This document shows, in pieces, positions 3 to 52,436 of a DNA stretch of 64,000 nt. This DNA comes from Naegleria gruberi (lineage: Eukaryota). Position 1 is the first letter of the stretch; each line of letters starts with the position of its first letter. The stretch lies in the NCBI GenBank assembly GCA_000004985.1, contig GG738847.1. One strand, 5' to 3'. Position numbers and translations under genes: made by a program. The notes beneath the pieces were generated by a model. The model saw only the letters and a program-made list of their open reading frames with translations. It was not told where the DNA came from and did no database searches.

Positions 3-395
3 AAGAGGGCATCTCAGAAAGGAGATGATATTGCAAAAATTTATGCAAAACAAAAGTTTTTCTGGACTGGAAAGTTGTTATTTTCATCAGTAATTGCCAA
101 TTCTTGTTCTGGTCAATTGGAAGCTATTGCAGTGACTAGCACAGTATTTGGATCACCTCATTTTCAATGGAAAGGAGTTCAATTTTTGACACTGAATAGT
201 TTGAATGAAAGTAATGTGGAAAAGTTTTATTCAACAGCTTGTCTGTACGATCAGGACACTACCCTTCAAAACCAACTTGTTGACAATGATTTAGTGAGAT
301 TTTCCTCAGCTGTGCTATTGAATCATTCGTCCAGAGTGTTAACTAATGGATTATTACTGATATTGGTATTGTTCATTGGATGCATTGTTTGTTAA
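3..395 (+). CDS. 3' terminal fragment of a gene whose 5' end lies left of the window; unknown protein with a hydrophobic C-terminal tail
   Basis: Frame 3 is open from nt 3 to the TAA at 393-395 (131 codons). The last ~20 residues (LLLILVLFIGCIVC) are hydrophobic after an N-x-S site, like a GPI signal or C-terminal anchor. No recognisable family. Confidence 0.3.
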   Translation, partial: KRASQKGDDIAKIYAKQKFFWTGKLLFSSVIANSCSGQLEAIAVTSTVFGSPHFQWKGVQFLTLNSLNESNVEKFYSTACLYDQDTTLQNQLVDNDLVRFSSAVLLNHSSRVLTNGLLLILVLFIGCIVC

Positions 396-455
396 TATTT
401 CAGTTTTTCTCAATAATTATTATTATTCTATTGAAATAGAGTTTGAAACATGTAA

Positions 456-2563
456 TTACTCTTCTGATGGTGTGGATGGACTTGAGGAATTTTCCTTCTT
501 TTTTGTTGTAACATTCTTGAGTTTGGTTCCACCTTCTTTCAATAAATTTCCTCCTTGCTTTAATTTGTTCAAACCACCAACACCTCCTTCCTTAAGCAAG
601 TTTCCACCTTGTTTCAACTTGTTTAGTCCACCTGCTCCTCCAGCTTTCATGAGATTCATTCCTCCCTTACCTCCTTGTTTCAATTTGTTCAAACCACCAA
701 CTCCTCCCTCTTTCAATAAGTTTCCTCCTTGTTTCAGTTTGTTTAGTCCACCAACACCTCCAGCTCTCATCAAGTGAATTCCACCTTTACCTCCCTTTTT
801 GAGAATATTGAAACCTTGAGTCATATTTTGCTTTTGCTTATTCATCATGTTACCAATTTGTTTCATGGCTGCCTTTTCCTGTAAATCCTTAAATTCCAAA
901 AATGTTTTCTTTTGGGCTTTCTTGAAATTTGAAAGAAGTGATTCTTGAATGGATTTGGCCACGAAACCAAGTAAGATACCCAACAATCCAAGACCAATCA
1001 AGACAAAGAAACCAAATGTAATCTTACCATTGGTTGTCTTTGGGTAAAAATCTCCATATCCAATTGTACTCAGAGTTACAAATCTTTTCATAAAATCATT
1101 ACCAAGTATAATTACATATGATTGTAAATAAATTTTCTCCTAAATATTGAAAAAACCTACGAATAATAGAATGCATCATAAAACTCCCAATTTTCCAAAT
1201 AACTAAACAATGCAGCAGCTCCCACAACATATCCTCCCAACAGTAAAATCATGTTAATAATCTGAGTAGCACCTCTATTAAAGAATGAAAACATTTTCTT
1301 TTCCAATGGTGTTAGCTCTGGATTTTTCATATTTGCCTTAATTCTCATCACTTCTTCCAAATCTCGATTTTTAGCTGTTTTGAATGTAATTACAATGGAT
1401 CTCTTAATGTAGAGCATGACTACAAATATTCCAGTACCGAAAGAGTTCATAATGGCACCTCCTACGAATGAAATCCACATACCCATGAGGGATATTCCTA
1501 GAAATCCAAAAAAGACAACCCACAGTTTACCTCCAATAGTAGTTGGTGACATATCTCCGTATCCAATGGTTGATAAGGTAACAATCATGAAATAGACACT
1601 GTTTCCATATGTCCATTTAGGATTAAATGGATCAATAGTGACATTGGCATTTCCTGTCGAATTATCAAATGAATATTCATCTAATGTTGAATTCAATAGA
1701 TTTTCCTTATATGCCAAATAATTCTTATATTCAACATCTTGTTCAATGAACATGACAGCCATAGCACCCAATGCAATGACAGCCATGATTAAGGCAAAGG
1801 AAATTAGCAATTTCAAAATATCTTTTGCAAAATCTTTCAGTGATGGCTTTTGAATATATTCCTTTGAAATGTCACCCATCAATTTATCTGAAAATCCATT
1901 CAATAATTTCATAAATTTCTTTTCCTTGACTTCATCTGCATCAGAATCCAATTCTGATTGAGTATTATCAAGTGTAGGAGCTTCCTCTTCATTGGAAACT
2001 GTTCCAGAGTTGACCAAATCGACTATTACATGTTCTCCCATGAGGTGTTCTTGAGATACTTGTGGAAATTCTCCTTGTTTCTCATCGTTATGACCTATTT
2101 CTCCTGTAAATTGTACATCTTGCTCATTATCCATCACATCCTGATCTAGTTCCGCAAGTGCCAACTCACTAACTCGTTGCTCATGCTCTACACCATTCAT
2201 AAACATGACAAATTCACTATATCCATCAATAAACTCAAACAATCGATCACAAATTCTCAATTTCCTCCTCTCTGCATCATCGCCAAAGTACAATTCCACA
2301 TAGTGTTGAATCATATTTTCAATATTTCCCGAACTTGTTGAATTGCCAAATAACTGATGAATGACATCCCATGAAACGCTCTTCAACGATGAAGGAGATG
2401 CCATTGGTGATACTGCTTCTATCCTTCCTTCATCATTCTCATCATTTTCTAAAGATAATGGTGGTGCTTCAATATAGAAATTACCAGAAAAGTCAACGGA
2501 ATCGTGTTCTCTTCCACACAATACACAAAAACATTCTCTATTCACTGTTTCCAACACTCTCAA
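456..2563 (-). CDS. Two-pore-domain K+ channel (K2P/TOK-like, 4TM/2P): long cytoplasmic N-terminus, pore 1 VTLSTIGYGD, pore 2 FVTLSTIGYGD, C-terminal Gly-rich repeat tail
   Basis: Track ORFs 1157..2563 and 456..1091 are one gene joined by a ~77-bp intron (1084..1160). Donor TC|GTAGGT, acceptor AAAAG|A. The splice restores AFYYS-FVTLSTIGYGD, the canonical second pore helix and filter. TM helices flank both TIGYGD filters. Exons are 1161..2563 and 456..1083. The first in-frame codon in the track is TTG. No in-frame ATG precedes the first TAA upstream, apart from a 29-codon uORF-like stretch at ~2700-2790, so the true 5' exon/start is unresolved. Confidence 0.75.
540..780. repeat. About 60-bp tandem repeat array inside the K+ channel C-terminal coding region
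   Basis: Four to five tandem ~60-bp units (ttcctccttgtttcaa[tc]ttgttcaaaccaccaacacctcc...). They encode ~20-aa repeats GG(V/K/A)GG(L/I/M)NKLKQGGNLLKEGG on the minus strand. Confidence 0.8.
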
Positions 2564-4653: not shown

Positions 4654-7600
4654 ATGTACATAAAACCATCAAGATCCTCTTCACAGCTGAACAAACACTT
4701 CATATTCCTATTGATTCTCATCATATTGTCCATTTCCTTCATTAATGCACAATCCAAGACAATCATCTTCCTTCCCTTCTGTTCCTCCCTCACAATCTCT
4801 CCAACCAGTAAGGTATTGAGCTCCAACTCACTCTCTCTTACAATATCAGCTCCGAACACTCTGTGGTAGGTTTATCATATATTCGGAATGTTAACATTTG
4901 TAAATTGTTAAGGTTGCCAAAATCAACAGGCCAATATTATCAATTGAACACCTTGACAGCGAGTGATGCTACTGAACAGATCAAGTCACTAGTCGTTCTG
5001 TCTGATCCTAAGGCTGGTGTTGCTAGATCTCCTTCAACTGTTTCTGTTCTATCTGCTTCATCATTTAGTGTTCAATTTACTGGATTGACTAGCAATGCTC
5101 GATTCACATTATTAATTGCTTATGGATTTGCTTATTTGGATGTGGAAACTACCAGTTATGTTCAATTAATTATGATATCCTCACAGTCAGTGTATAACTA
5201 TGCTACAGGAACAGCTCAAATTGAGACATTTGCTTTACAGAACTCGTATGAGAGCTCATTGGGTCAATTTTGTTTATCTAATTTATCTCCATATGCATTG
5301 ACATATCTTTCTCAAATTGATAATATTCGAAACAATGTATTTTCATCTCCATATCTTCAATCTCAAAAATTAATTCTCAATGGTAAATGGAATGGACAAC
5401 CAACTTTACAAAAAATTACAGAATTTGTTTCGAATGGATTCACCTATCAATTGAAGAGTAGTATTGATATCCAATTCCAAGAATTAGCAAATACTCAAAT
5501 CATAATTCCTTTACAATTCAAGAGACATATTGGAGCTGTCTTTGAAAAGATTGATATTGATGATTTCAAGATTAGTGAAAGACCAGCTGATCCGCAAGAA
5601 TTGGAAAGTCTATTCGAAAGGATACGTCAAGAAACTATCTTTTACAAGGTGAGTCTTGATCCTAATACCGCTCCAGTCTCTCAGGAATATTTAACAGGAG
5701 CAGCTGCTGAAACTAATGTTGCCATTCTAATGACCTATGCCTATTACTGGGCAGATTTCTTTGATTGGTATCGTAATCCAATGGTCAGAGTGATAATCAA
5801 GGATGGTATTATTGGAATGATTAGTATTTCAGTGGCAGGTCTCAATTATTTCACATGTCCTTATGGTTCTCTTCGTAGTGAGATACAACACTTTACTCAG
5901 GGAGACTCCTACCATTCGATTGGTTATTCCTCCATCCATTCGATATACACATTTGCCTATGATCAAAAGAATTGGAAAATCAATACGCAAGTGAATATCA
6001 ATACTAATGGAATGGTTGCAAATGTTGCCAGCCTGTCAAATTTTGAAAATTCCTTGAGTTGCATTGATGGAAATTTCAAAGTAACCCTCTCGGATAATGT
6101 ACTAGCAGATTATGAAAGCTTTTTCACTGATAACTATATGATTTCCAAGATTGATACTAGAATGTCCATTCAGTCAATTGAAAATTTTACACTTCTCTAC
6201 GTTGACGATTTGGGAAGTGAATTCACAGGCCCATTAATTACACCAGAGAGTTTCGTTGGAGATTTGCAATTCAATCCAGGATTTTGTGATGAAACTATTG
6301 GTACTGGATTAGGAAATCAATTATCTTACTATTTTTCTTCTAGTGATTTTTCAGTCGAAAGGTTTCCAGAATATTCGACAAGATTGAGCTATGAAAATGG
6401 AGTTTCTTATCTTTCAGATACAAATTCTGTTGGTTTAAAGTATTCCAATCATGAATATTTGCAGGATTTCTCCATAGAAATTGATCAATCTATTCTATTA
6501 TATAAGGAACCCAAAGTTTCATCTGTGAATTTCACATTAATTCCAAATCGTTCAGAATGGAATGAAATGAATGCTACAATTCAAATATTTTCCTTTAACA
6601 GTGGGGATTGGGGTGGTGAATTCACTGTTGAATTGACTTGTTCCTATCCAATCATAATTTCCAATAATTCGCCTCAGAAATTCAACGTGGAGCCAGGACA
6701 AAACTTTACAGCCTTCTTCACTGTCAAGAGTGATTTCGACTCGTGCAAAACTGTATCCCTCCAATCTGTGTGTGATTTCAAAATTTCCATCAAGAAAGAA
6801 CAATTGTGGACTAATCTAGAAAAGGAAATTTCTGCCCATGAATCTGTGGCCATAGATTATGGATATTTCATTCCAAGATGTCAAGCCAAATATAATGAAC
6901 CATTCCTCTGGCTGGAGAATATGACCCTATCCTCTCCATATTTCCAGAGAAGTGCCCATGATGGATTTGTCAACTCAATTCTCGTAGTTTTGAAAACTAA
7001 TAGTTCAGATTTAATCCTTTCGAATATTGCAAGCGGTCTGTTGGCAGATTCTAATAATCCATTCCACTCATGGAAAGATTACTCAATTATTATGCAACAT
7101 GCTGAATATTACATGTTGAACTTTACGATTTCAAGCACAAACGTTGCTAGAATTTTAAGTGAACGAGTTGACCAAACGCTTTACACATTCTCCCTCAATT
7201 TAACTCTATTAGATAATTATATTTGTTGGTCAACAAATGGAAAAGGAGGAATCTTCCCATTTTCCTTTAGTGTTGCCTACGATTGTCCAATCGAGTATAC
7301 CGGTATCCAATGTGATATTCCATTATGTTATGGAATTAATGCAACCAATTATACGAACGTATGTTCAGGTCATGGTGATTGTGTATCGCCAGATTATTGT
7401 TCCTGTCATGCAAATTACACATCTGCCACCTGTTCTGTTCCTATTTGTTATGGTGTTCGTGGAGATAATTTATCTACTTGCTCATCCAAAGGTTCTTGTA
7501 TAGATGCTAATACCTGTACCTGTCAGAATGGTTATACAGGTGTCAATTGTGAAATTCCAATTTGTTTCAATGTTCCAGCTAATTTTTCACATTCATGTTA

Positions 7601-10600
7601 TGGACATGGTAACTGCATTGATCATGATCTTTGTTCATGTAATGATGGATACACTGCTTCATTGAATTGTTCACTTCCAATATGTTATGGATTAGATTCT
7701 AGTCAGCTAATTGTTTGTTCTTCACATGGACAATGTTTGGCTCCAAATAATTGTTCATGTTTTGATGGTTTTACATTCGATAATTGTTCAATTCCAATTT
7801 GTTACAATATTGATGCTTCCAATAGTTCAGTGTGTACTGGATTTGGTGAATGTTATTCTCCAAATAATTGTAAATGTCATGAAAATCATATTGGATTACA
7901 ATGTGAAATTCCAATTTGTTTTGGAGTTCCATCAAATGAAACTCAGTCGTGTAATGGTAATGGACAATGTATTCAATATAATGAATGTGTGTGTCATTTA
8001 GATTATACAGGACTCAATTGCTCCATTCCAATATGTTTTGGAAGTAATGCCACCAACCCAACTGTTTGTTCTTCGCATGGCGTTTGCCAAGCACCAGATC
8101 AATGTCAATGTCATGAAGGATATACTGGAATACAATGTGAAATTCCAATTTGTTTCAACATTCCAGCAACCAATTCCAGCACATGTTCATTCCATGGAGA
8201 ATGTATCGACCATAATCTTTGCACATGTCATGATGGATACACTGCTGCATTGAATTGCTCCCTTCCAATATGTTATGGATTAGATTCTAGTCAATCAATG
8301 GTTTGTTCTTCACATGGTCAATGTTTGGCTCCAAATAACTGTACATGTTTTGATGGTTTTACATTCGATAATTGTTCCATTCCAATTTGTTACAACATAG
8401 ATGCTTCCAATAGTTCAGTATGTAGTGGATTTGGTGAATGTTATTCTCCAAATAATTGTAAATGTCATGAAAATCATATTGGATTACAATGTGAAATTCC
8501 AATTTGTTTTGGCGTGCCATCAAATGAAACTCAAGCTTGCAATGGTAACGGACAATGTATTCAATATAACGAGTGTGTGTGCCACTCAGATTATACAGGA
8601 ATAGACTGTTCAATTCCAATATGTTTTGGAATTAATGCTACTAATCAAAGTCATGTTTGTTTTTCACATGGTATTTGTCAAAAACCAGATCAATGCCAAT
8701 GTCATGAAGGATATACTGGAATGCAATGTGAAATTCCAATTTGTTTCAATATTCCAGCTATTAATTCCAGCACATGTTCATTCCATGGAGAATGCATTGA
8801 TTTCAATCATTGTTCTTGTCATGATGGATACACTGCTTCATTGAATTGTTCACTTCCAATATGTTATGGATTGGATTCTAGTCAGCTAATGGTTTGTTCT
8901 TCACATGGTCAATGTTTGGCTCCAAATAATTGTTCATGTTATGAAGGATATACAGCTGAAAATTGTTCCATTCCAATTTGTTACAACATTGATGCTTCCA
9001 ATAGTTCAGTATGTAGTGGATTTGGTGAATGTACTTTTCCAAATAATTGTAAATGTCATGAAAATCATGTTGGATTACAGTGTGAAATTCCACTTTGTTT
9101 TGGCGTGCCATCAAATGAAACTCAGTCTTGCAATGGTAATGGACAATGTGTTCAATATAATGAATGTGTGTGTCATTCAAATTATACAGGAATAGATTGC
9201 TCAATTCCATTATGTTTCAATATCAATGCCACCAACCCAACTGTTTGTTCTTCGCATGGTATTTGTCAATCACCAGATCAATGCCAATGTCATGAAGGAT
9301 ATACTGGAATGCAATGTGAAATTCCAATTTGTTTCAACATTTCAGCTAATGATTCCAGTACATGTTCATCCCATGGAGAATGTATCGATTTCATGATCTT
9401 TCACTGTCATGATGGATACACTTCAGCAAATTGTTCAATTCCAATATGTTATGGATTAGATTCTAGTCAATCAATGGTTTGTTCTTCACATGGACAATGT
9501 TTGGCTCCAAATAACTGTACATGTTTTGATGGTTTTACATCTGATAATTGTTCAATTCCAATTTGTTACAACATAGATGCTTCCAATAGTTCAGTATGTA
9601 GTGGATTTGGTGAATGTTACTTTTCCAAATAATTGTAAATGTCATGAAAATCATGTTGGATTACAGTGTGAAATTCCACTTTGTTTTGGCGTGCCATCAA
9701 ATGAAACTCAATCTTGCAATGGTAATGGACAATGTGTTCAATATAATGAATGTGTGTGTCATTCAAATTATACAGGAATAGATTGCTCAATTCCATTATG
9801 TTTCAATATCAATGCCACCAACCCAACTGTTTGTTCTTCGCATGGTATTTGTCAATCACCAGATCAATGCCAATGTCATGAAGGATATACTGGAATGCAA
9901 TGTGAAATTCCAATTTGTTTCAACATTTCAGCTAATGATTCCAGTACATGTTCATCTCATGGAGAATGTATCGATCATGATCTGTTGCACATGTCATGAT
10001 GGATACACTTCAGAAAATTGTTCAATTCCAATATGTTATGGATTAGATTCCAGTCAGTCAATGGTTTGCTCCTCGCATGGCCAATGCTTAGCTCCAAATA
10101 ATTGTTCGTGTTTTGAAGGTTTTACATTCGATAATTGTTCCATTCCAATTTGTTACAACATAGACGCCACCAACCAATCAGTATGTAGTGGATTTGGTGA
10201 ATGTTCTTCTCCAAATAATTGTAAATGTCATGAAAATCATGTGGGATTACAATGTGAAATTCCGCTATGTTTTGGAATTGCATCAAATGAAACTTTGGCA
10301 TCGTGCAATGGAAACGGCCATTGTTTTGCAGTGGATTCTTGCTCTTGTAATCAAAATTATACTGGAGCCAATTGTTCTATTCCTATTTGCTTTGACTTCA
10401 ATGCCACCAATTCGAAGGTATGTTCGGGACATGGAAGTTGTTCGAAACCAAACTATTGCGAATGTTTTGAAGGTTATATGGACACCCAATGTGAAACTCC
10501 AATTTGTTTTGATATTCCAGCAACTATGAATAATACCTGTTCTGAAAATGGCATTTGCCAAGATTACAATCATTGTAATTGTAGCTCTGGGTTTACTTCT

Positions 10601-13600
10601 TCAAATTGTTCAATTCCTATTTGTTTCGGTTCGAATGCCACTGACGAAACAGTATGTTCCTCACATGGTCAATGTCTTTCTCCTAATAATTGTTCCTGCA
10701 GTGATGGATACATGCATTCAGATTGTTCTCATCCAATTTGTTTCGGGCTTGAATCAACTAATCGAAACTCTTGTTCTACTCATGGCACTTGCATTTCACC
10801 AAATTCATGTCAATGTGATGGCAATCATGTAGGTGACATGTGCGAAATTCCACTTTGTTTCAATATCCCGGCCAATCATAACTCAACTTGCAGCTCAAGT
10901 GGAAAATGCATTGGTGTGAATTTGTGTGAATGTTATGGAAATTTCACAGGAATGAACTGTTCTGTTCCAATTTGTTTTGATGAGAATTCAACTTCCATTA
11001 TGAGTTGCTCGTCGAGAGGAAGATGTATTGGACCCAACCTGTGTGAATGTCAAGTTGGATATACTGGTAGCGTTTGTGAGTATCCTGTTTGTTACGGTTT
11101 CTATTCGGAAGATGTAAATTCATGTTCAGGACATGGAGAATGTATTGACTATAACAAATGTCAATGTGAAAATGGGTACGTTACTGAGAATTGTTCCATT
11201 CCTGTGTGTTTTGGTTTGAATAGTTCAGATTCCAATGTTTGTGCTTCCCATGGCGATTGCTTGTCACCAAATAATTGTTCATGCCATGAAGGATTTACAT
11301 CAATCAATTGTTCCATTTCAATTTGTTATAATTCACCTGCCACTGACCCATTTGCATGCAATGGAAAAGGAAATTGTGTAAATCCAAATGAATGCGCCTG
11401 TCAAGAAGGTAACATAGGATTACAATGTGAGATTCCACTTTGTTTTGGCGTGCCATCAAATGAAACTCAGTCTTGTAGTGGTAATGGAGAATGTATTCAA
11501 TATAATGAATGTATGTGTCATTCAAATTTTACAGGACTCAATTGTTCCATTCCAATATGTTTTGGTATAAATGCCACTGATCAAAGTCACGTTTGTTTTT
11601 CACATGGTATTTGTCAAGAACCAGATCAGTGTCAGTGTCATGAAGGATATACTGGAATACAATGTGAAATTCCAATTTGTTTCAATATTCCAGCAACCAA
11701 TTCCAGTACCTGTGCATCCAATGGAGTTTGCATTGATTTCAATAATTGTTCTTGTCTTGATGGATACACTTCGGAAAATTGCTCCCTCCCAATATGTTAT
11801 GAATTGGATTCTGGTAAATCAATGGTTTGTTCTTCACATGGTCAATGTTTGGCTCCAAATAATTGTACATGCCTTGAAAGATTTACATTCGATAATTGCT
11901 CCATTCCAATTTGTTACAATATTGATGCTTCAAATAGTTCAGTATGTAGTGGATTTGGTGAATGTTCTTCTCCAAATAATTGCAAATGTCATGAAAATCA
12001 TATTGGATTACAATGTGAAATTCCACTTTGTTTTGGAATTCCATCAAATGAAACTCAGTCGTGTAATGGTAATGGACAATGTATTCAATATAATGAATGT
12101 GTGTGTAATTCAGATTATACAGGAATAGACTGTTCAATTCCAATATGTTTTGGAAGTAATGCCACCAACCTAACTGTTTGTTCTTCGCATGGTATTTGTC
12201 AATCACCAGATCAATGTCAATGCCAAGAAGGATACACAGGTACCAACTGTGAAATTCCCATTTGTTTCAACATTCCAGCTAATGATTCCAGTACATGTTC
12301 ATCCAATGGAGAGTGCATTGATTTCAATAATTGTTCTTGTCATGATGGATACACTTCAGAAAATTGTTCAATTCCAATATGTTTCAATTTGAATAGTACT
12401 GATTCTAGTGTTTGTAACTCTAATGGAATTTGTACTTCCCCTGACAAGTGTCAATGCCAAGAAAATTTCACAGGTGAAAATTGCTCAATTCCAATATGTT
12501 TCGGATTGGCAGCAAACTCAAGCGGGGCATGCTCCGCATCTGGAAGTTGTGTTTATCCCAATACATGCCTCTGCAACCAAGGAATCATTGGCATTAATTG
12601 TGAAATACCTTCCTGTTTTGGAATATTCCAAAATAATAGCCAATCCTGCTCAGGAAATGGAATTTGCATTGAACTGAACAAATGCTCATGCTACCTAAAC
12701 TTCACAGGTGAATCCTGCTTAATTTCTGCATGTAATGGTATTGCCTCTAATGATAGCTCTGTTTGTTCCGGAAAAGGAAAATGCACAGCTCCAAATCTTT
12801 GTGAATCATGTGAGGAAAATTACTTTGGAGAATGGTGTGAAATTTCACAATGTTTTGGAATATTCTCGAATCAGAGTCAAGTTTGTTCTGAAAATGGAAA
12901 GTGTGAATCTTACAATAATTGTAATTGCTCAATGGGTTATGTTGGGGAAAATTGTAATATTCCTGTATGCTTTAAAATTAATTCAACCGATGAAAATGTT
13001 TGTAATTCTAATGGAATTTGTACTTCTCCTGATTTGTGTTCATGTAATTCCAAATATGGAGGTTTAGAATGTTCAGAACCGAAATGTTTTGGAAAAACAA
13101 CATTAGAAGGTGCATGCAGCTCGAAAGGTAATTGCACACAACCAGATTCATGTACTTGTGAGAAAGGTTTCTTTGGTATTTCATGTGAATTGCATTCTTG
13201 TTTTGGAATTCAATTGAATGATTCGAGTGTGATTTGTTCTGGACATGGTGAATGCAAATCTCTGGACGAATGTGAATGTGACAGTGGTTACTTAGGTGAA
13301 TCATGCTCCATCCACACCTGTTTTGGGATTACATTCAATGAGAGTGGTGTTTGCAGTGGAAATGGAAGTTGCTCAAGTTTGGACAACTGTACCTGTTATG
13401 GAGATGGAAAATTCTATGCAAATTGTACTTTAATTCCAAGTGATTCTCCAATAATTGATAGTGATGTACCTTCGAATCATACAGAAATATCCAATAATTC
13501 AAGTTCTTATCCAAATTGCTTTAACATTTCGGCAAATCATTCGAATGTTTGCAATGGAAATGGAAATTGCACAAGTGAAAATGAATGCAAATGCAGAGAG

Positions 13601-15835
13601 GGATATTTTGGTGGGGAATGTTCTCTATTTGCATGTTTTGGAAAGGAATCAGCTGATTCAAGTGTTTGTTCATCCAATGGAATATGCGCGAGTCCAAATA
13701 CTTGTAAATGTCGACCAGAAAGATATGGCTCTCAGTGTCAACTTGTCAAATGTTTTGAAATTCTTTCTAATCAGTCCAATGTTTGTTCCAGTAAGGGTTC
13801 ATGTCAAGATACCAACGCATGCATATGTAATGAGGGCTATTTCGGCCCCATGTGTAATATCACAAGTTGTGAAGGAATTTTGAGTAATAATTCTCAAGTT
13901 TGTAATGGAAGTGGACAATGCACTCATTACAACACTTGCCAATGTAAGGAAGGATTCATTGGATTGAACTGCCAATTCACCAAATGCAACTCTACATCGT
14001 GTAGGCATGGAAGTTGCATCACTACCTCTCAGTGTGAATGCGAAAGTGGATGGACAAGCTCGGAATGCAATCTTCCTATTTGTTACGATTTGTTGGCAAG
14101 TGACTCGAATGTTTGTTCTACACATGGCAAATGTATAGCTCCAAATAAGTGTAACTGCTCCACAAATCCATTGTACATGGGTGATAAGTGCCAATACTTA
14201 CAATTAGATAGTTTGCAATGTAGTATTAATCCATCACTCAATTTGATACCAATTGAGTGGACAATTTCAGGATTGGATAAAATAACATTTGATATGAGCT
14301 CGAAGGAAATACTTGTTAGAAACAGTATCCCATACAGTACATCTCTCCATTCCAAATCAAAATTCAACTACGAGCTCAATATTTACAACACTGGAAAGCG
14401 ATCTTTCAATTATCAAATTAATTCATTCTGTGAAAATGGAATTTCATTCAAACAATTGGGAATTTCTTCTCAATTCGGATTATTACAAGAAGGAAACAAT
14501 GCAAATATTAAGGATTTACAAAATATTGGATTTGCTCTCTTTTGGAATGATGAAAGTTTGAAATATGAAGATATTAAATGTCATGTCGAATTAATAGTCA
14601 ATCCGAAAGATCAATTCGATGAATGTCAACACTACGATTCGAATACTGAAACATCCTCCAAATATAATATTACTCTCATATTGGAACGTACAAATGTTTG
14701 TCAATTTTTGAAAGAAACAGATTTACCACTGACCTTTTCAAGCACTCAATTGTCAACCATGAGTGAAATAGCTCTAATTGATGAAAATATTCTTTCAGAT
14801 AACGATATTCTCAAAATTATTAATACATTCACTCAAAAGAGGAATAACTGGCAAATAATTAATAAGGACAACAGTACTCTTCAAGCTAACATCTTGTTAA
14901 CTGCCCAGTTGAGTAATCCAAACAATGAATTGGGACTTTTTGTTCCATCTCTGATATGTAAGGATGAAAGAATTGTTGATGACATAGAATTTACCACAGA
15001 ATATCTTTCCAATCAATCTCCATTCTCCATTTCTCACTCTCTACAAAAGATTCAATTCCAATTCAATGTTACAATTAAGAATGTTTCGAATTATGTTGAT
15101 TATGGTAGAGTGAGAGGAGGAAAGGAAGGAATGGCAACAGTTCTCATTGAGGACATGCTCCTTAATTGTTCTCTCATTCTCCTACCAAATCCATCTGAGT
15201 GTTGGTCCAACACGAATAGAAATTCCACATTCTCCAAATATATCATTTCACACTTTACACTGCCAATTGTTTCTGGTGAATTTTCATTCTTCCAAGCTGT
15301 GAGATCCTTCGAAATAGGTATCATTACACTTACCTACACTTGTATGGGCATTGGTTTTGCATCCATGATATGCACGACCAAAGTTCCTCGAGATCGAAAA
15401 CATTCTCTGCTCCAACTTGTAGAATTTGTCAAGGAAAAGAGAAGAAACAAACTCAACTCTACATCTGATGACTCCAAACCACTCCTAGAGAATCAAATTG
15501 ATAGGCCATACTGTGAAAATTGTGGTCATCACACTCGGAAGAAAGCTCGTTATGCCATTCGTGTGGAAAATTATGATGCTAATTGCGAAATGTTCATTTG
15601 TGAGAATCAGGTATGTTTTGAAGCCATGATCTCTCTCCACAATAGAGGATACTCCCATCACTATCAATGTTTCGACTTGGATAAAGAAGAAGATTGTCAA
15701 CTCATGATTGAAACACCATTCAAGACACTTGCTGATAATTTTGATGAGTCGGATATTTATGAATCTATGGATATTGAATTTCCAATACCTTCCGATATCA
15801 ATGATGATGAAGAAGATGACTCTGATTTATTCTAA
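4654..15835 (+). CDS. Giant type-I transmembrane protein (~3,700 aa). Signal peptide, ~750-aa non-EGF N-terminal region, ~58-60 tandem tenascin-type EGF-like modules, a TM helix and a Cys/His-rich cytoplasmic tail. The reading frame is interrupted twice (near 9613 and 9985)
   Basis: Exon 1 is 4654..4807 (ATG in aaaaaaaATG context; signal peptide FIFLLILIILSISFINA). Intron is 4808..4929 (GTAAGG...ACAG). Exon 2 starts at 4930 in the frame of track ORF 4863..9632. Modules follow C-x-(I/V)-P-(I/L)-C-(F/Y)-x(5-8)-C-x(2)-(H/N)G-x-C-x(4)-C-x-C-x(2)-G-(Y/F)-T-(G/A)-x-x-C. Track ORFs 4863..9632 (frame 0), 9577..9999 (frame +1) and 9812..15835 (frame +2) are consecutive pieces of the same repeat array, separated by two 1-nt insertions. 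The TM helix is GIITLTYTCMGIGFASMICTT; the tail CENCGHH...C-x(n)-C is zinc-finger-like. Stop TAA is at 15833-35. Confidence 0.7.
7550..12840. repeat. Higher-order tandem repeat (~587 bp = 5 EGF modules) within the giant EGF gene
   Basis: Anchor gaaattccaatttgtttcaa recurs at 7551, 8139, 8730, 9318, 9904, 11664 and 12251. Copy 9043-9400 is near-identical to 9629-9990. The middle units (10000-11600) are more diverged. Confidence 0.8.
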
Positions 15836-15937: not shown

Positions 15938-17248
15938 ATGGGTCAACCAATGAATAGACAATTACAGCACACTGGTTTGATATCAGAAAGTGTAAATGAA
16001 GTATTCGCATCGGAAGATGAAACTCTCTCGGAAAATGTAACAATTTCTGATCAGAATAACCCTCTATTTGTTTTTGATATATTGTCTGAGATTTTCTCAT
16101 ATTTGGATAATTTTACAGTTTATTTGAGATGTGTATTGGTTTGTAAAACTTGGAGATATTGTGCTTGGCATTTGTTGGATGAATTTAATTTTAGATATGA
16201 TGATTTGGATTTGTTATTTTATGGGAAAGAGGGAGAACGAATTGCCAAGCAATTTAATCCTTCTCTTGGAAGATCGGAGGCAGTCCGATTGAATAATACT
16301 CAAATGTTGGAGTACATGTTGAATTTAATTGTGAGAAATGCTAGATATTTGAAAAAGTTTAATGTTGTTGGAGCACAACAGAATGAGGATATTAAAAAGA
16401 TGATCAATGATGAGAGAATTGCACTCTTGATGAGATCTTGCTCTGAAAACTTGGAAATGTTGGATTTATCTTCTTGCGATAATTTGAAAGAGGTTTCGTA
16501 TAGTCAAATACTGAACAAGTGTAGAAAAACTTTGAAATCACTCAAACTCAGATGTAGTTTAAGCATTAGAGATACCTTTGCTAAGGATTATATTTCAACA
16601 CTGGAATCTTTGGAGTATCTCAATCTTTCGAAATGTTGTTACATTGGACTTTATAGTTTAATACCAATTTCTACCAATTGTACGAAATTGAGAGTTTTGG
16701 ATGTGTCTGGATGCACGTCATTTTATGGATTTAGCTTTTTAAGGAATTGTACAGTATTGGAAGAGTTACATGTACAAACAACATATTTTTCCTCAGATGA
16801 TTTCCAATACATTCCAAATTCATTGAAAATTTTGGATGTGCAAAATTGCGAACAAGTGAGAAGGTTGAATCATGTAGCAAACTTGGAACACTTGGAGGAA
16901 ATCAACCTTTCCTACAATAACATTCAACTTGAAGGAGAGTGGAAGAATCACGTTATGAAATGGAAAATTCTAAAGGCAATTTCAGTACCAGTTGGCTGCG
17001 AGTTATTAGACCAAACACCATACTTGAAACATTTAGAAATTGGTTTCCTTGAAGCCTCTGCTAGCATTACAATGCTAAGTGTTCTCAAGAGGTCTCATTC
17101 ATTCACAGAGGAAGATTCAACAGCCAAGCTCAGCACCAATCTGAAACATTTACTCATAACTGATTCACACCTTACTCACTCTTTTGTTGAAGAATTGAAA
17201 TACTATTGTCCTTCAATAGTATTAAAAACTCGACGTTGCAATATCTAG
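15938..17248 (+). CDS. F-box/LRR protein (FBXL-type, cysteine-containing LRRs)
   Basis: Single exon; ATG at 15938 (aaaaaaaaaATGggt), TAG at 17246-48. F-box is FDILSEIFSYLDNFTVYLRCVLVCKTWRY. Cys-containing LRRs follow (LDLSSCDNL, LNLSKCCYI, LDVSGCTSF). Confidence 0.8.
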   Translation: MGQPMNRQLQHTGLISESVNEVFASEDETLSENVTISDQNNPLFVFDILSEIFSYLDNFTVYLRCVLVCKTWRYCAWHLLDEFNFRYDDLDLLFYGKEGERIAKQFNPSLGRSEAVRLNNTQMLEYMLNLIVRNARYLKKFNVVGAQQNEDIKKMINDERIALLMRSCSENLEMLDLSSCDNLKEVSYSQILNKCRKTLKSLKLRCSLSIRDTFAKDYISTLESLEYLNLSKCCYIGLYSLIPISTNCTKLRVLDVSGCTSFYGFSFLRNCTVLEELHVQTTYFSSDDFQYIPNSLKILDVQNCEQVRRLNHVANLEHLEEINLSYNNIQLEGEWKNHVMKWKILKAISVPVGCELLDQTPYLKHLEIGFLEASASITMLSVLKRSHSFTEEDSTAKLSTNLKHLLITDSHLTHSFVEELKYYCPSIVLKTRRCNI

Positions 17249-19405: not shown

Positions 19406-21277
19406 ATGAGCAAACATCTAGAGGGTGAAATTCTCTCACCCTCAACAAGAACATTTTCATCATCACGTGATGATGAACTTGAAACTTTTCATCAACTGCA
19501 GCAACGAATTCTTCATCATCATCATGAGGGGAAGAATATTTCATCATCATCGGCACCTTCGGATCATGAAATTAAAATCAAATTGAATACACGAGATGGA
19601 GGAAATGAGGATGATGCAGATGATGCACAAATTAAATACTTGATACCTCCTAATGAATTAAACATGCAAGGATCCGAATTATTTATGAAGGCTTCACCCA
19701 TGTTGGAGGCAATTAGAATGAAGTTTAGACAAGGAAGGGCTGGGGGAAGAAAAAGATATTGTCTCATGCCCTATGATTTGGATTTGACAATGATTACATC
19801 ACGAATTATTGCAACTTCACTTCCCACTTTGAATTGGTTTGTTGGATATTTTAGAAATGATGCTAGTGTTTTGGCAAAGTTTTTGGAGGAAATGTATGGA
19901 AAGGATCATTATATGATTTATAACTTGTCAGAATTCCGATATGAGAAACAAGTTTTTGATGGAAAGGTTGTTGATTTGAATTTTCCTGATCACTATAATC
20001 CACCATTGGACTTGTTAATGATGGGTTGCAAGAGTATTCAAGATTGGCTTGCAAGAGATGAGAAAAATGTTGCATTAATTCATTGTGCTGGTGGAAAGGG
20101 AAGAACAGGAACATTTATTACTGCCTACTTTTTATATTGGTATGTTTTATTTTACTGTTTTCTTATTCAAATAATAATATGTTTAATATTTTATGTAAAA
20201 TATTTAAACTGTTTAATTTGCATTTCTAATAGTTCACTTTTCCGTGATGCAATGGATGCACTCATGTATTTTGCTCTGATGAGAATGGAAAAACCTGTCA
20301 ACCCATTCTCAGTTTGTCAGAATGGTGGTATTAATTCTCCATCTCAAATCAGATACATTACCTACATTCAACATTTGCTGGAAAATAAGTTTGGATCCAA
20401 ATCTCAACGACACACTACCACTAACCCTCAATCTTACTTGTACAATAATACGATATTCGAGAAGGATAACCTATTCTTGAAAAATCATTGTAACATTCCT
20501 GTAAAACAATGTGTTAAATTGGAAAAAATTGTAATAAGAGAAGCTAGTCAACAAATTGTTGACCATGTAAAAGCCAATACATTCTTGTGTGAAATTTGTG
20601 AATTGAGAATACACAAGTTTGAAGAGACTCATAGCCCAATTAGAAATACTCTAGATATTGAAGATTATGAAGTTAGAAAGGAGATTTTACTAACTTTTGG
20701 TAATGAATTTTGTGAAATTAATGGTAATTTATTGAAATTCAATTTACCGAAATCGGTAGCACTCTCTGGTGATGTCATTATCATTATGAGAATGAAGAAT
20801 CATATCAAAATGAAAGAGTTTGCTAGAATTGGTTTCCACACTGCATTCCTCATTAATAATAGACTCTCCCTTACCAAGCCTGAAATTGATGGTGTTCACA
20901 GAAGAGAGACAGTTGGCTCAGATTTTGGAATGGATTTTTACTTTGAACATTCCAATAATGAAACAATTCAATCCACTACCACTGAATACTCTCTCAATAA
21001 TCTCTACCAGTTACCAGAGCAACCTGCCACGCTCAGTCCTCATCACGTATTTTTATACGATACTGACTTCCACTTCCCTTATCATTCCTATCTCAAAACT
21101 CAGAGTGTTGAGAAAATAGAAACAACAACTATGGAAACTCTCTCCCCATCAGTCATCCACTCTCAACAAGTTGTTCACATCAGACCAATGAAATTCAAAG
21201 TCAAATTGGCACCAACCTTACACGAAATGGATCATGCCAAAGGTAAATTCATTTCACTCACCATAACTCTAGGTTAA
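19406..21277 (+). CDS. PTEN-like lipid/protein phosphatase (PTP/C2-type); 2 exons
   Basis: Motifs are RYCLMPYDLDLTMITSRIIATSLP and the catalytic loop IHCAGGKGRTG. Intron is 20140..20232 (GTATGT...AATAG). It is 93 nt and in frame, so the track shows one ORF with the intron translated as YVLFYCFLIQ.... The spliced product gives AYFLYCSLFRDAMDALMYF. Confidence 0.8.
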   Translation: MSKHLEGEILSPSTRTFSSSRDDELETFHQLQQRILHHHHEGKNISSSSAPSDHEIKIKLNTRDGGNEDDADDAQIKYLIPPNELNMQGSELFMKASPMLEAIRMKFRQGRAGGRKRYCLMPYDLDLTMITSRIIATSLPTLNWFVGYFRNDASVLAKFLEEMYGKDHYMIYNLSEFRYEKQVFDGKVVDLNFPDHYNPPLDLLMMGCKSIQDWLARDEKNVALIHCAGGKGRTGTFITAYFLYWYVLFYCFLIQIIICLIFYVKYLNCLICISNSSLFRDAMDALMYFALMRMEKPVNPFSVCQNGGINSPSQIRYITYIQHLLENKFGSKSQRHTTTNPQSYLYNNTIFEKDNLFLKNHCNIPVKQCVKLEKIVIREASQQIVDHVKANTFLCEICELRIHKFEETHSPIRNTLDIEDYEVRKEILLTFGNEFCEINGNLLKFNLPKSVALSGDVIIIMRMKNHIKMKEFARIGFHTAFLINNRLSLTKPEIDGVHRRETVGSDFGMDFYFEHSNNETIQSTTTEYSLNNLYQLPEQPATLSPHHVFLYDTDFHFPYHSYLKTQSVEKIETTTMETLSPSVIHSQQVVHIRPMKFKVKLAPTLHEMDHAKGKFISLTITLG

Positions 21278-22720: not shown

Positions 22721-22956
22721 ATGATCTACGATATCCATTCTGACTTGTTCTTGAGATTTGTTAGAAACAAGACTAACCGTGCTCACTTGAAGTATGTATA
22801 AAAACATTATGATAGTAATATTTATTCCGTTATATTAAATTCTTCACTATAACTTCATCATGACGTTATTCAATATTAAATAATAATAGGAAGCAAGAAA
22901 AGAGAGAAAAGAAGGAAGCTGGTAAGGCTACTGGCGACAAGATGGAAGACGAATAA
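22721..22956 (+). CDS. Candidate 45-aa protein encoded by two exons (MIYDIHSDLFLRFVRNKTNRAHLKKQEKREKKEAGKATGDKMEDE)
   Basis: ATG at 22721; donor GTATGT at 22792; acceptor AATAG|G at 22887-89; exon 2 is in frame to TAA at 22954-56. Exon 2 uses expression-biased codons (gct ggt aag gct act ggc gac aag). No family recognised. Confidence 0.3.
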
Positions 22957-23133
22957 ATTGTCTGAACCCCAATAAAACCTACTCCTCCTAAATTATTTAA
23001 ATAATATAAAAACTAATTTTAAAATTAATATCTGATTAACGACTAATATCTACAGTACGTGAAGAGAGTTTTCAACGTAGACATACAACAACAAAATTCC
23101 TTCTTAGTATTCATCGAAAAAGTAACAATCAAT

Positions 23134-24438
23134 TTATTCCTTCTTGGCTTCTGTGGTAGCTGAAGGAACAACTTCCTTCTTTGTTGGCATGGTAAAGGAG
23201 AGTTTACGAACAGAGAGGAATTCCTTGACTTGTTCATCGGTAATCTTCTTTCTTCTCTCTTGATGTTCGGCAACCATCTTTTGCAAGAGGTCAATCAATG
23301 CTCCCTTGACTTGACCAGTCAACATCTTACCAGTTGAGTACTTTTCACGAATATCTTCTAATTGGACATCATCTTCCAAGAAGAATTGCAAATATTGATA
23401 AGGAACGTCAACAGCCAAGTTAGCTCCATACTTTTCTTGGTCTTCCTTGGTGGCACCACCTCCAGAGAAGGCATGTTTGTTAATCTTATCCTTAATTTGC
23501 TTTGGAGTATCTGTCAAGAAGATTGAAGAAGTGTCAGATGAGGATGACATTTTCTTGTTAGCACCTTGCAAAGCAGGGAAGAATTTGGAGTGAATGAGAG
23601 CTGGCTTTTGGAAACCCAATTTTGGAGCAACATCTCTTGTCACTCTAAAGTATGGATCTTGATCAATAGCACATGGAATCAAACACATAATATCATTCTT
23701 TCTCTTTGTCTTCTTTTGCTTCTTTTTATCTTCAGCTGTTTCTGGGAAAATGTGTGGGAATGAAGTATAGAAGGAAGGAGCAGCTTGAATAGCAGGGAAT
23801 GAGAATTTACCAATATTATCGGAATCTTCAAAACCAAAAACACCTTTAACTTGACTACAAGTTACAGACTTTTCAATTTCGAGAACAGTTCTATATAAAT
23901 GTCCCATATAATCCAAATTGGAGAAGATGAAAGTCTTACTCATATCAAAACCACAGGCAATAATATCCTTGGCGTTTTCATAAGTCAAACGATGAGCTTC
24001 TTCCAATTCCAACTTTTTCCACAAGAACTTTTCATCATCGGTCATTTGAACTACCAAAGGAACATCAAAAACATCTTGCAAATATTTAGTAAACATGAAA
24101 GGAATCAAGTGACCCAAGTGCATTGATTCACTGGATGGTCCTCTACCAGTATATAAATAAAAAGGTTTGCCTTGTTCATAGTAATCCAACAATTTGTGCA
24201 TATCACGATGTGAGAAGAAAATTCCTCTCTTCAAAAAGTGGTGGACAGGCTTCTTGGTAACACGTTCAATACGTTCTAACAAATCTTCAGAAATTGCTTG
24301 AGAACCGAATTGATTAATTAATTTACCATAATCGACACCATCATCACCAGCATCAACATCCCAAGGGGTGACTATTTGTTCCTTCTTTTCTTGTTGTTGT
24401 TCAGTGCTTTGTATTGGTTCTTGTGGTTGTTCGGACAT
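23134..24438 (-). CDS. WARS: Tryptophanyl-tRNA synthetase, cytoplasmic type (class I)
   Basis: 434 aa, single exon; ATG at 24438 (caaaaaaATGtcc), TAA at 23134. Motifs are HLGHLIPF (HIGH-type) and KMSSSS (KMSKS-type). Strong overall similarity to eukaryotic TrpRS. Confidence 0.9.
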
Positions 24439-31694: not shown

Positions 31695-33130
31695 TTAACA
31701 TATTTTAATAAGGAATCGATACAAATCTTGACTTTTAACATTCATGAGACAGGTATCTTTGAGATGGGAGGCAAATTGAATCGAGTATTCATCAAATTTT
31801 CCACAAACCTTCTCAAAGATTTGAATGTGAGTTTTGACACAGCTCAGATCAGCTTGTTCATCTGAGTAACAAGTCTTGGAAGGGTTTAATCTCATCATAT
31901 CGTCAATGAATTGCTTTCTATACTTTTGAAGTGTTCCTAGATTGAATTGGGTGCTCATTTGGGAGAAGATTAGGTCAGTTCTTGCTTTCTTCTTTAAGAA
32001 GGTGTGATATTCGGTTTCGTATCGAACGAATGTTTCCATGGAGGATTCTAACTTGGCCTTTGTCATTCTCTTGATGAGATAATCTTCATAGACAAATCTG
32101 GAATTGAGTGGCTTTCTGATTGGATTATTGACCTTTCGTCTTGGTTTTGTTTCATGATAAGTTGAAACATTTCCTTGGAAATAAATCAAAGTTTCATCCT
32201 CAAAGGACATGTCACCATATTTACAAACATGTGATGTTGAAGTTTCCTTCAAAACATGATCAAATTGTTCAGCAATAGTTTCCTTTCGAATATCACAAAA
32301 ATCAGTATCATTCATCCAATTAATCGAATAGCAATCATTCAAATAAGCTCCAAATATATCACTATAATCACATGCATACGATGATTCAAAAGGAGTCGAA
32401 GCAGTTTCTGCATAAACATTCAAATTAGCATTCAGTACAGAATTAAACATGCTTCCACTCTCACAAGCTTCCACATAAAACAACACTTGACTATACATTC
32501 TCTTCTTATACATATACTGAAGTGTTTCTAATAAATCTTTCGAATGCAATACATTAAATCCAGGGAAAGCCAAAATATTGGTAGCTCCATGATCAGCAAA
32601 ATAAATGAAAATCCTATCATTTGGTCCACTTTTCAATGTCTTTCCATTTCCTCTAGTGATATTCGAATCTCCTCTGAGAACTGAGAGGAAAACATCAGGT
32701 GTAACATCTTCACCTCTATAATCAATAGCTTCCTTTCCAGGATAAACATTGGTGCCATTATATTCATTGATAATGACACCTTTTTGTGGGTTATCATGAT
32801 TGAAGGCAATGTCATCGAACATGAAGGTGATAATATTTGAAGCAGGAATTCCTCTATCAGTTACAATTTTGTAAGCATGACAAATCTAGAGTTTACAAAA
32901 ATTGTAAAGTGGCTTAATGAGAAATGAAAAGGTAGATTGAAACTTACATCGGCTTGATGTCTATAGTTAAAGTATCCATTCGAACCTGCTACGAGAATAA
33001 CCCAATTTTGACCTTTCGGATTTTGAACATTAAATGTTGGATTATTTTTGTTAATATTAAAAGAAGAAACTCTGGAGAGTAAACAGAGAAAGCCAACAAT
33101 CAACAACACTGAATGTAGTTTAGCTTGCAT
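31695..33130 (-). CDS. Legumain / asparaginyl endopeptidase (peptidase C13); 2 exons
   Basis: Exon 1 is 32948..33130 (signal peptide; NWVILVAGSNGYFNYRHQAD; donor GAT|GTAAGT). Intron is 32886..32947. Exon 2 is 31695..32885 (ICHAYKIVTDRGIP...IFIYFADHGATNILAFP...VLFYVEACESGSMF). Catalytic His and Cys are present. Confidence 0.85.
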
Positions 33131-33661
33131 GATTGATGCTATTATTTTGAAGAATAAAAATCAATTGGAAAGACTATACGAATTCAATTTATAAAAAGAA
33201 ATGTATTAATCAGCATTCTTTCCAATCTAGGTGTTATTCCTTTTCAAAAATGTAGAATTCAATGAAACATTTTAGGACTATCCAAGTTATTCGAAACATT
33301 ATCATTTGGCTGATGGATAGTTAGGTTGAAAATAATTCTAAATACAATCATATGTTGCTGTTCTGTTTTGATAGATTGTCATACAAATAAGAACGCTTTT
33401 TATTTTGTAAAAGTGCTGATTACAATGCCAAGGGTGTAAGCAATGAAACCAATAATTCCATTTCTTGTTACCGTTATTAGAGAGGAGCATTATGATTAGA
33501 ATGTGTTAATAACAAAATTTTCAAAACCAATTCATTGGTATTATCAGCTAAAGAGTTAAACTTTGAAATAAATTCTATTAATTGTAGTATATTGCAATTA
33601 ACAAATGGTTTTCTTTATTCAAATACAAACCAATTATTCCTAGTCCAATTCTTTGAGTTTA

Positions 33662-44139: not shown

Positions 44140-44838
44140 CTAACCAGATTTTTTACAGAAAATCCATTCCAATCCTTCATACAAATTACTCTCATTATCC
44201 GAATGTAGCACCACCATCGTATTCTCCTTCTCATATTCTTGCTCCATAAACTTCTCCACAAATTGTTTAGCCTCCAATGCACGTACTATATGGTCATTGG
44301 TTCTGTGATCCGAATAAATAACAAATAAAATAGGTCGAAAATTCTTCTTCTTTTCAGGAGGAATGAAAAAATAATCATTTTGCCTTTCCACACTATCATC
44401 ACATTTTGCACGTTTTATCATGTCTTTCAATGAAAACATATAGCCATCGAATACTTGTTCAACAGTTTGTGGCCACAATGAATGAATTCTAATCCAAATC
44501 ACAAGTGCATCTCCTCCTTTAATATAATTCGGATACAAGTATTTAATATGAGTATATTTGGAAACATCTCGATCTTCAATAAAGAAATTTTTAAATTCTG
44601 TTTTATAGATTCGAGATTCTTCTTTTATCGGAGAATGTTCATCTGTGATGTGATTTGATTCATAGAGCAGTTTAGCAATTTCCTTATATCCTTCTGCAGA
44701 TACTCCAGAAAAGGAAAAGACAAAAAACTTTTTCTGTGGTCGCCCTACATAATCATAGATTGAATATAAAAATCGATAGATACTTGATGAATAGAGCATC
44801 TGATCAAATTGTTCCAGCAGATCACTAAAATCCATCAT
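44140..44838 (-). CDS. Hypothetical protein (232 aa)
   Basis: First ATG (aaaaaaATGATGgat) is 39 nt inside track ORF 44140..44877. No recognisable family. Confidence 0.45.
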   Translation of the reverse strand: MMDFSDLLEQFDQMLYSSSIYRFLYSIYDYVGRPQKKFFVFSFSGVSAEGYKEIAKLLYESNHITDEHSPIKEESRIYKTEFKNFFIEDRDVSKYTHIKYLYPNYIKGGDALVIWIRIHSLWPQTVEQVFDGYMFSLKDMIKRAKCDDSVERQNDYFFIPPEKKKNFRPILFVIYSDHRTNDHIVRALEAKQFVEKFMEQEYEKENTMVVLHSDNESNLYEGLEWIFCKKSG

Positions 44839-45216
44839 TTTTTTAATATTTTTAATTTTAAATAAAATATTAATCAAATACTCTCATGCTCTACTTTGCT
44901 TTGGTTCTCTCTAAGTGTCATTCTATTTCTGATCATGAAAATTAAATGTTGAAAAATAGAGTTGATGGTAATGGTTGTAAAATCAGATTCAATTTTAAAA
45001 TGGCGCCTAAATTTTGAATATTTGTTACAATAAAACTGTGAGCCAATCAAAAAGTACCAATTCAGAAGTTCTGGGATAGTTGCTGATGGTTGTGCAACAC
45101 GCGCTAAAAATCCGTGCTCGACTGGAGATTTTGAAAAATGCCTCAACAAACATTTATAATGTCAAATGATAACAGTCAACTGTCCAGTATGTTAAAAAAA
45201 ACAACAACATTAAATA

Positions 45217-45540
45217 ATGAATAAGATTACTCTCTGTATTCTCTTTGCTTTGGTTGTCTTGGTTGCTCTCGTTAGTGCCCAACAACAAGAAGAACAATCC
45301 CCAGCTCAACTTTTGAGAAGTATTGCTCGTAGATTGTACCCAAATTCTTCTGATCGTCAAATTGCCAAGAAATTGTTCCCAGGTATTAGAAAGTTGAAGA
45401 AACCAAGCACTGATAAGTTGCTTAGTTTGATTTCTGCTTTGAGTGATTCCCAATCTTTCGATTGTGCTAGATATTGTGCTGGAAGTACTGGAGACTACAA
45501 GGTTTCTTGCTACCAACATTGTCAACGTTATAATTTGTAA
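45217..45540 (+). CDS. Small secreted protein (107 aa) with signal peptide and 4-Cys C-terminus
   Basis: ATG at 45217. Signal peptide ITLCILFALVVLVALVSA. C-terminal C...C-x...C-x3-C. No recognisable family. Confidence 0.45.
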   Translation: MNKITLCILFALVVLVALVSAQQQEEQSPAQLLRSIARRLYPNSSDRQIAKKLFPGIRKLKKPSTDKLLSLISALSDSQSFDCARYCAGSTGDYKVSCYQHCQRYNL

Positions 45541-45868
45541 TTTGGTCGTTGACAAAGTAGTATCAACATTTTGGCAAATTCATCATCATTCGAATAAAGT
45601 TTAGAATTTCGTCAACTACAAAACATCTATTGATAATTTCGGAACAGGGATTCACATGCACAATATTTTGAAATACAACATTACAAGCACTACTGAATTC
45701 AAATTCATACATGTATTTTAAGAATTGATTATTTATTGACACAACAATATTTAATGAAAACTTTCAATTCAAAGAGAAACTATCCATGGTTTAATAAGTA
45801 TAATATCACTACTTCAAATACTCTCATATAAAGTAGAACAAAAGCCACACAACTAACATGCAATTTCT

Positions 45869-52422: not shown

Positions 52423-52436
52423 CTCAGTATTTTTAA

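Follow-up and report, generated by a model that had tools for sequence, protein, structure and literature searches.

Two one-base insertions within a near-identical repeat block interrupt a giant EGF-repeat gene in the Naegleria gruberi draft genome

A 64,000-nucleotide stretch of the Naegleria gruberi genome (GenBank assembly GCA_000004985.1, contig GG738847.1), hereafter the window, carries on its plus strand a giant gene for epidermal growth factor (EGF) repeats that is cut by two unprogrammed one-base insertions. The locus is an ordinary defect, most likely an artefact, or else a very young mutation. With a rough probability of 0.55, the extra bases would be errors that entered the 2010 Sanger whole-genome shotgun draft of the heterozygous strain NEG-M at the consensus or assembly stage, so that the lesions would lie in the consensus rather than in the DNA. 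The initial annotation of this stretch had proposed recent pseudogenisation or assembly error as causes; this framing is supported, and sequence alone cannot choose between the two. Neither an artefact nor real lesions would alter the current understanding of recoding or gene structure, and the main value of the analysis lies in the correction of the public gene model.

The gene is divided between three open reading frames (ORFs), exactly as the initial annotation had described, and their translations together form one unbroken run of cysteine-rich modules.

4863..9632, plus strand: upstream ORF (ORF1), frame 0.
9577..9999, plus strand: middle ORF of the ORF list, frame +1, the true reading frame of modules 19-22 of super-repeat SR4 between the two lesions.
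9812..15835, plus strand: downstream ORF (ORF3) of the ORF list, frame +2, with the remaining EGF modules, the C-terminal domain, the membrane span and the tail.

Removal of one base at 9617/9618 and one at 9984 (or 9985) yields a single stop-free ORF of 3,656 codons from 4863, in which the 39-amino acid (aa) module phase is unbroken and every SR4 module contains six cysteines. Once the upstream exon is spliced in and both sites are repaired, the product reaches 3,710 aa, with 376 cysteines and 122 N-x-S/T sequons, in line with the single ORF of ~3,700 aa that had been anticipated. The locus is a single N. gruberi gene encoding a type I membrane protein of ~3,710 aa. From the N-terminus onwards, this protein comprises a signal peptide, an ~800-aa N-terminal domain, ~58 EGF modules, a C-terminal domain, a membrane span, and a Cys/His tail.

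4654..4865, plus strand: proposed exon 1 with the start codon and signal peptide (MYIKPSRSSSQLNKHFIFLLILIILSISFINA|QS), based on the ORF and on its translation compared with residues 31-126 of Willaertia P0129.
4866..4912, plus strand: proposed 47-nt intron (GTAGGT...TTAAG), based on sequence and on homology across the junction.
4913..7310, plus strand: N-terminal extracellular domain of ~800 aa, outside any Pfam family.
7311..14188, plus strand: EGF array of ~58 teneurin/tenascin-type modules of 39 aa, from Pfam matches and module lists.
15308..15379, plus strand: predicted membrane span FEIGIITLTYTCMGIGFASMICTT, conserved in Willaertia P0129.
15512..15673, plus strand: cytoplasmic Cys/His motif (CENCGH...CENQxCF...), conserved in and aligned with Willaertia P0129.

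Judged by homology, the three ORFs are fragments of one ancestral gene, because the Willaertia protein is collinear with both the N-terminal part of ORF1 and the C-terminal part of ORF3. In Willaertia magna, ABK040_013066 (KAL9658154.1, 2,171 aa) presents the same architecture in one uninterrupted protein, with 28% identity in the N-terminal domain and 31% identity over 712 aa of C-terminal domain, span, and tail. The last 640 aa of ORF3 match residues 1321-2024 of P0129 (BLASTP E = 3e-91), a match covering the membrane span and the CENCGH tail. In the window, the N- and C-terminal parts of the family stand on one polypeptide only after both frameshifts are removed. The comparison with orthologous loci that had been suggested was, thus, informative as to the unity of the protein. 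It was uninformative as to the lesion sites: the Willaertia protein has far fewer EGF modules, differently organised and without the 585-bp super-repeat, and therefore cannot show the state of these sites.

The EGF array is only partly arranged in super-repeats of five 39-aa modules, whose period is 585 bp (195 codons), with units spanning 585-591 bp. The period of 587 bp that had been proposed is incorrect, and corresponds to the length of the broken unit only. Tandem Repeats Finder reported nothing here, as the period exceeds its 500-nt limit, and the repeats were analysed by alignments instead. Both lesions fall in the fourth super-repeat, within a block almost identical to part of the third.

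8847..9431, plus strand: super-repeat SR3 (copy A), 585 bp, in frame, from unit comparison.
9432..10018, plus strand: super-repeat SR4 (copy B), 587 bp, with both +1 lesions, from unit comparison.
8991..9463, plus strand: near-identical block, copy A, 473 bp, from base-by-base comparison.
9576..10050, plus strand: near-identical block, copy B, with windows matching at 58-60 of 60 positions at an offset of 586.
9617..9619, plus strand: lesion 1, a +1 insertion reading TGT-T-A-C, from the family alignment, informative sites, and ORFs.
9984, plus strand: lesion 2, an extra G (CT[G]TTGCACA), from repeat comparison and informative sites.
9967..10007: quasi-palindrome around lesion 2 with 19-nt arms (9967-9985 and 9989-10007), 84% complementary, from an inverted-repeat search.
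9388..9404, plus strand: in-frame scramble ECIDFMIFHCHDG in module 17 of SR3, differing from the Y-type by +TT, -G, and -A.

The near-exact duplication noted earlier between 9629-9990 and 9043-9400 is, therefore, real, though its extent had been understated (8991-9463 versus 9576-10050). Homogenisation of the two ~473-bp blocks was recent. Throughout these blocks, only three substitutions separate the copies (9125/9711, 9371/9957, and 9427/10014), alongside five insertion or deletion (indel) events, namely T at 9617/9618, TT at 9389-9390, G at 9984, G at 9987, and A at 9991. The flanks of the SR3/SR4 pair, by comparison, show 38 substitutions and no indels (Fisher p = 4e-5). Assuming that indels constitute 10% of natural changes, the probability of at least five among eight changes is 4e-4. 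All three lesion sites (the two frameshifts and the in-frame scramble) are confined to 8.5% of the gene, for which the probability by chance is ~6e-4.

At site 1, SR1 and SR2 read GAATGTT-ATTCTCC, SR5 and SR8 read GAATGTT-CTTCTCC, SR3 reads GAATGTA-CTTTTCC, and SR4 reads GAATGTTACTTTTCC. SR4 thus retains, side by side, both states of a single column: the T of SR1, SR2, and SR5, and the A that is specific to SR3. Compared with copy A, GAATGT[T]ACTTTTCC stands against GAATGTACTTTTCC at 9027-9040. The extra T reported by the initial annotation is present at 9617/9618, with the correction that the quoted motif begins at 9612 and not at ~9613. Frame 0 terminates shortly after this lesion, at TAA 9630-9632. 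Both the informative-site table and a best-paralogue scan describe SR4 as a mosaic, SR2-like over 9432-9618 and SR3-like over 9619-10050, and lesion 1 lies exactly on the switch between the two.

Patchy near-identity is also seen between non-adjacent units, for example, 8280-8399 with 9456-9575 and 8430-8489 with 7842-7901 (57-60 of 60 positions). These shared tracts carry no frame lesions, and show patchy exchange across the EGF array.

Site 2 is the variable loop that separates the fourth cysteine of a module from the fifth. The extra G that had been placed at ~9985 is found at 9984, where CT[G]TTGCACATGT stands against CTTTGCACATGT in SR1 at ~8215, and frame +1 terminates after it at TGA 9997-9999. 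The quasi-palindrome around this site is confined to SR3 and SR4. Calculated as single-stranded DNA hairpins, the energies are -10.9 kcal/mol for SR4 as observed, -9.8 for SR4 without the G, -6.8 for SR3, -2.1 for SR1, and -3.0 for SR2. The preceding unit is locally scrambled but in frame, as had been remarked at ~9385; the change (9388-9404) removes one cysteine and leaves module 17 with five, a count unique in the regular array. A column-wise mixture of X-type and Y-type loops was considered as the origin of this scramble and rejected, as it fits the TT prefix alone and leaves the lost G and A unexplained.

Consensus error is favoured because the spectrum of changes is dominated by indels, the lesions are clustered, and both states of a column are retained where the source switches. 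According to this explanation, reads from slightly different repeat copies or haplotypes would have been merged. At positions of disagreement between the sources, the consensus would have retained the two alternatives together (T and A at site 1) or become garbled (site 2, with its variable loop and hairpin), and the organism itself would carry an intact gene. The T and A kept at the SR2/SR3 switch are what a consensus changing between source sequences yields. More generally, an excess of indels, their clustering, and a doubled column state are typical of a consensus that merges slightly different copies or haplotypes or draws on poor read ends. A single N. gruberi assembly is listed, made from Sanger reads of strain NEG-M, and the species is reported to show heterozygosity (PMC9928731). 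Consensus indels and the merging of haplotypes or paralogues in drafts of heterozygous genomes offer a close likeness, with lesions located in near-identical repeats, indels outnumbering substitutions, and a fake intron made by the gene predictor.

Nevertheless, several points weigh against this explanation. Sanger reads of ~700 nt with mate pairs should span the 473-bp near-identical block, a repeat that this read length should normally resolve (here the case differs from known draft-assembly errors), and there are no N gaps in the window, so that gross misassembly is not obviously expected. The SR2-like part of SR4 is only ~97% identical to SR2, and is, therefore, genuine distinct sequence rather than a trivially mis-placed read. 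The extra G at 9984 lengthens the stem of the quasi-palindrome by 3 bp (TGT/ACA) next to the loop, which is the signature of a natural template-switch mutation. Finally, the three indels of the SR3 scramble total zero, an outcome favoured by selection on real DNA and expected from random errors only one time in three.

Independent copies of the locus were sought in public data. Exact-protein look-ups with the translations of 9812-15835 and 9577-9999 and with the public protein of the locus found nothing, and exact DNA scans of the Joint Genome Institute (JGI) metagenomes with the lesion-1 junction and a block-specific 26-mer gave 0 matches. Two specific forms of artefact were also considered. 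A false tandem duplication of two alleles is rejected, since the block flanks differ by 10-12%, a divergence well beyond that of alleles. Sanger band compression at the hairpin is a weak candidate, as the stem is AT-rich and would reach only about -10 kcal/mol at 37 °C.

The strongest competing explanation, possible though less probable than consensus error, is that the lesions are real and very recent. SR3 would have been copied into SR4 by gene conversion or unequal exchange with error-prone repair synthesis. Lesion 1 would then stem from a mismatched invading 3' end (...GAATGTT) misaligned on the donor (...GAATGT|ACTTTT), lesion 2 from a short template switch within the quasi-palindrome, and the SR3 scramble from a separate hairpin-associated complex mutation. 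In this case, the gene, or one of its alleles, would be a nascent pseudogene in NEG-M, an axenic laboratory strain, producing at most a secreted fragment of ~1,640 aa. Lesion 1 sits where such a process would place it, precisely where the SR3-like tract begins, with the T of the recipient joined to the A of the donor. The inserted G strengthens, by TGT/ACA pairing and 1.1 kcal/mol, a hairpin that SR3 and SR4 alone possess. The scramble keeps the frame, which selection would demand, and the mosaic among units indicates that conversion is active in the array. Repair-linked synthesis is reported as ~1000-fold more mutagenic, with frameshifts and quasi-palindrome template switches as its typical products (bioRxiv 10.1101/2023.08.09.552703, PMC12891019). 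These works and PMC7202029, on mutagenic conversion and quasi-palindrome template switching in yeast and E. coli, provide a close comparison. The likeness lies in a frameshift at the edge of a conversion tract and in an insertion that perfects an imperfect palindrome. A difference is that yeast shows mostly -1 frameshifts in homonucleotide runs, while both N. gruberi lesions are +1.

For this explanation, two or more rare and independent events must have struck a ~600-bp stretch in the time taken by three substitutions; the other 10 kb of the gene has none. The donor and recipient differ at site 2, so a single event cannot account for both copies, and the scramble weakens the hairpin and loses a structural cysteine. 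Moreover, ORF3 is open for its 2,007 codons and without decay downstream of the breaks, and therefore any real break must be very young. An established, old pseudogene is excluded on the same basis, together with the confinement of the lesions to ~600 bp, or 8.5% of the gene. If real, the lesions would offer a modest case from nature of a giant gene broken as its repeats were homogenised, by misalignment at a junction and by a template switch in a quasi-palindrome.

Publicly, the locus is annotated as NAEGRDRAFT_62182 (XP_002682216.1, EFC49472.1), a 'predicted protein' of 1,693 aa, which is 100% identical to window positions 4914-9593 plus 9667-9996. Its mapped exons are 4745-4813, 4914-9593, and 9667-9996, and they leave one annotated intron over lesion 1.

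9594..9666, plus strand: annotated 73-nt 'intron' (GTATGT...TTACAG) bridging lesion 1, from residues 1583/1584 of the public protein, which map to 9593/9667.

Excision of this segment cancels lesion 1 at the cost of 24 aa, including four of the six cysteines of module 19. The model then ends at the TGA made by lesion 2, and lacks ~2,000 residues comprising the conserved C-terminal domain, the membrane span, and the tail. Its start, at ATG 4745, provides no signal peptide, while its 5' intron uses the same acceptor as the proposed exon 1 model. The annotated 5' end is probably wrong, because the alternative of exon 4654-4865 with the 47-nt intron gives a classical signal peptide and a translation that aligns with residues 31-126 of Willaertia P0129 straight over the proposed splice junction. 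The public model is, in short, truncated, contains a fabricated intron, and probably starts with the wrong first exon. The true product is most likely a membrane protein of 3,710 aa from a small family so far seen only in Heterolobosea. A literature search found no papers for the locus tag or its accessions.

Bypass of the defect by splicing, which would amount to intronisation caught in the act of repairing a frameshift, is very improbable. In one version, 9594-9666, the segment excised in the RefSeq model, would be a newborn intron with canonical GT-AG ends and the typical short length; its acceptor AG arises from a synonymous CAA to CAG change that SR3 and SR4 alone share. This 'intron' is, however, 99% identical to plainly exonic sequence in copy A and four other units (it is coding in SR1-3, SR5, and SR8), its removal takes the cysteines of module 19 mentioned above, and it leaves lesion 2 uncured, with a stop at 9999 ahead of the C-terminal domain, span, and tail. 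Gene predictors routinely invent introns over frameshifts, which further counts against it. In the other version, a whole unit (9532-10118, 587 nt, GTTTTA...GAAG) would be removed in phase, and this excision would indeed rejoin the modules exactly, but its donor GTTTTA is poor. Within the repeat, 104 GT..AG pairs restore the ORF by chance, so that enumeration of such pairs has no discriminating power. Copy A holds the same GTATGT...TTACAG pair at 9009-9080, 72 nt apart and in frame.

Two programmed +1 ribosomal frameshifts, at ...UCC AAA UAA (9624-9632) and ...UCA UGA U (9994-10000), are hardly credible, in agreement with the low likelihood assigned earlier, and nothing supports programmed frameshifting: both shifts needed are indeed +1, and AAA-UAA resembles Euplotes shift sites and UCA-UGA-U the antizyme UCC-UGA-U, yet AAA-TAA automatically appears when the CCA AAT AAT (P-N-N) of the family is put out of phase by one base, and a shift at UCA-UGA would replace C-T-C-H by L-H-M-S with the loss of two cysteines (products YFSK|N at site 1 and LHMS|DG at site 2). 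No such break interrupts the five sister units, the paralogue NAEGRDRAFT_69794, or the Willaertia homologue. The sequence 3' of lesion 1 is identical to unbroken copy A and holds no unique downstream element, and nuclear frameshifting of this type is not known from Naegleria.

The assignment of the array to EGF modules relies on several Pfam families, with EGF_TEN (PF25024) scoring 285 and 354 bits against a cut-off of 65, EGF_Teneurin (PF23106) scoring 193 and 313 bits against a cut-off of 24.3, and EGF_2 (PF07974) also far above its gathering cut-off. A strict six-cysteine pattern is matched by 54 modules, with module 17 as the sole exception in the regular array. As in the EGF arrays of teneurins and tenascins, the six-cysteine modules end in C-x-C-x-x-G-[YF]-x-G-x-x-C. 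The N. gruberi modules differ from that type by their length of 39 aa, their C-x-[IV]-P-x-C lead-in, and their dense N-glycosylation sequons, and the flanking domains are unrelated to animal teneurins and tenascins. No Pfam family was found for the N- and C-terminal domains (4913-7310 and 14189-15835), nor any Pfam match for the Cys/His-rich cytoplasmic motif at 15512-15673 (CENCGH...x...CENQxCF...H...C), a possible zinc-binding module. AlphaFold, given the N-terminal domain as a single sequence, produced an unusable model (predicted local distance difference test score, pLDDT, of 32).

An exhaustive HMMER search of 1.84e9 representative proteins returned only four relatives of the N-terminal domain: NAEGRDRAFT_62182 (the locus itself, phmmer E = 0), its paralogue NAEGRDRAFT_69794 (9.8e-224), Willaertia magna KAL9658154.1 (1.6e-46), and an unnamed Logan fragment. 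No N-terminal-domain relative was found in N. fowleri and N. lovaniensis, though their proteomes are in the searched database. On these search results, the protein family looks small and restricted to Heterolobosea. A word-indexed protein search gave no match for the N-terminal domain and only matches of at most 55% identity for the repaired EGF region. Both are false negatives: this search missed the 100% identical RefSeq entry that was found by HMMER, and its negatives carry no weight.

The window has a GC content of 33% and dense, mostly intron-free ORFs on both strands, with eukaryotic domains, such as F-box/leucine-rich repeat (LRR), PTEN, RGS, and legumain. Exact-protein look-ups for the ORFs at 19406-21277 and 15938-17248 found nothing. 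The tryptophanyl-tRNA synthetase (TrpRS) ORF of the window is 100% identical to an N. gruberi protein. A 2.7-kb metagenome contig (European Nucleotide Archive ERZ929261, run ERR1078381, PRJEB11402) matches window positions 22929-25592 at 98.8% DNA identity, with 15 mismatches and 7 gaps. It encodes an identical TrpRS protein and falls short of the EGF locus; the sample contains a closely related N. gruberi-like strain. Other same-strand ORFs overlap by 8-35 nt, namely 3..395/361..777 on the plus strand, and 45579..45154/45161..44874/44883..44140 and 33160..32861/32885..31695 (legumain) on the minus strand; these are probably short introns rather than frameshifts. Transfer RNA genes are interspersed among the protein genes, with Trp-CCA at 36483-36553 and Gly-GCC at 44018-44089 on the minus strand, and Ala-AGC at 52350-52423 on the plus strand.

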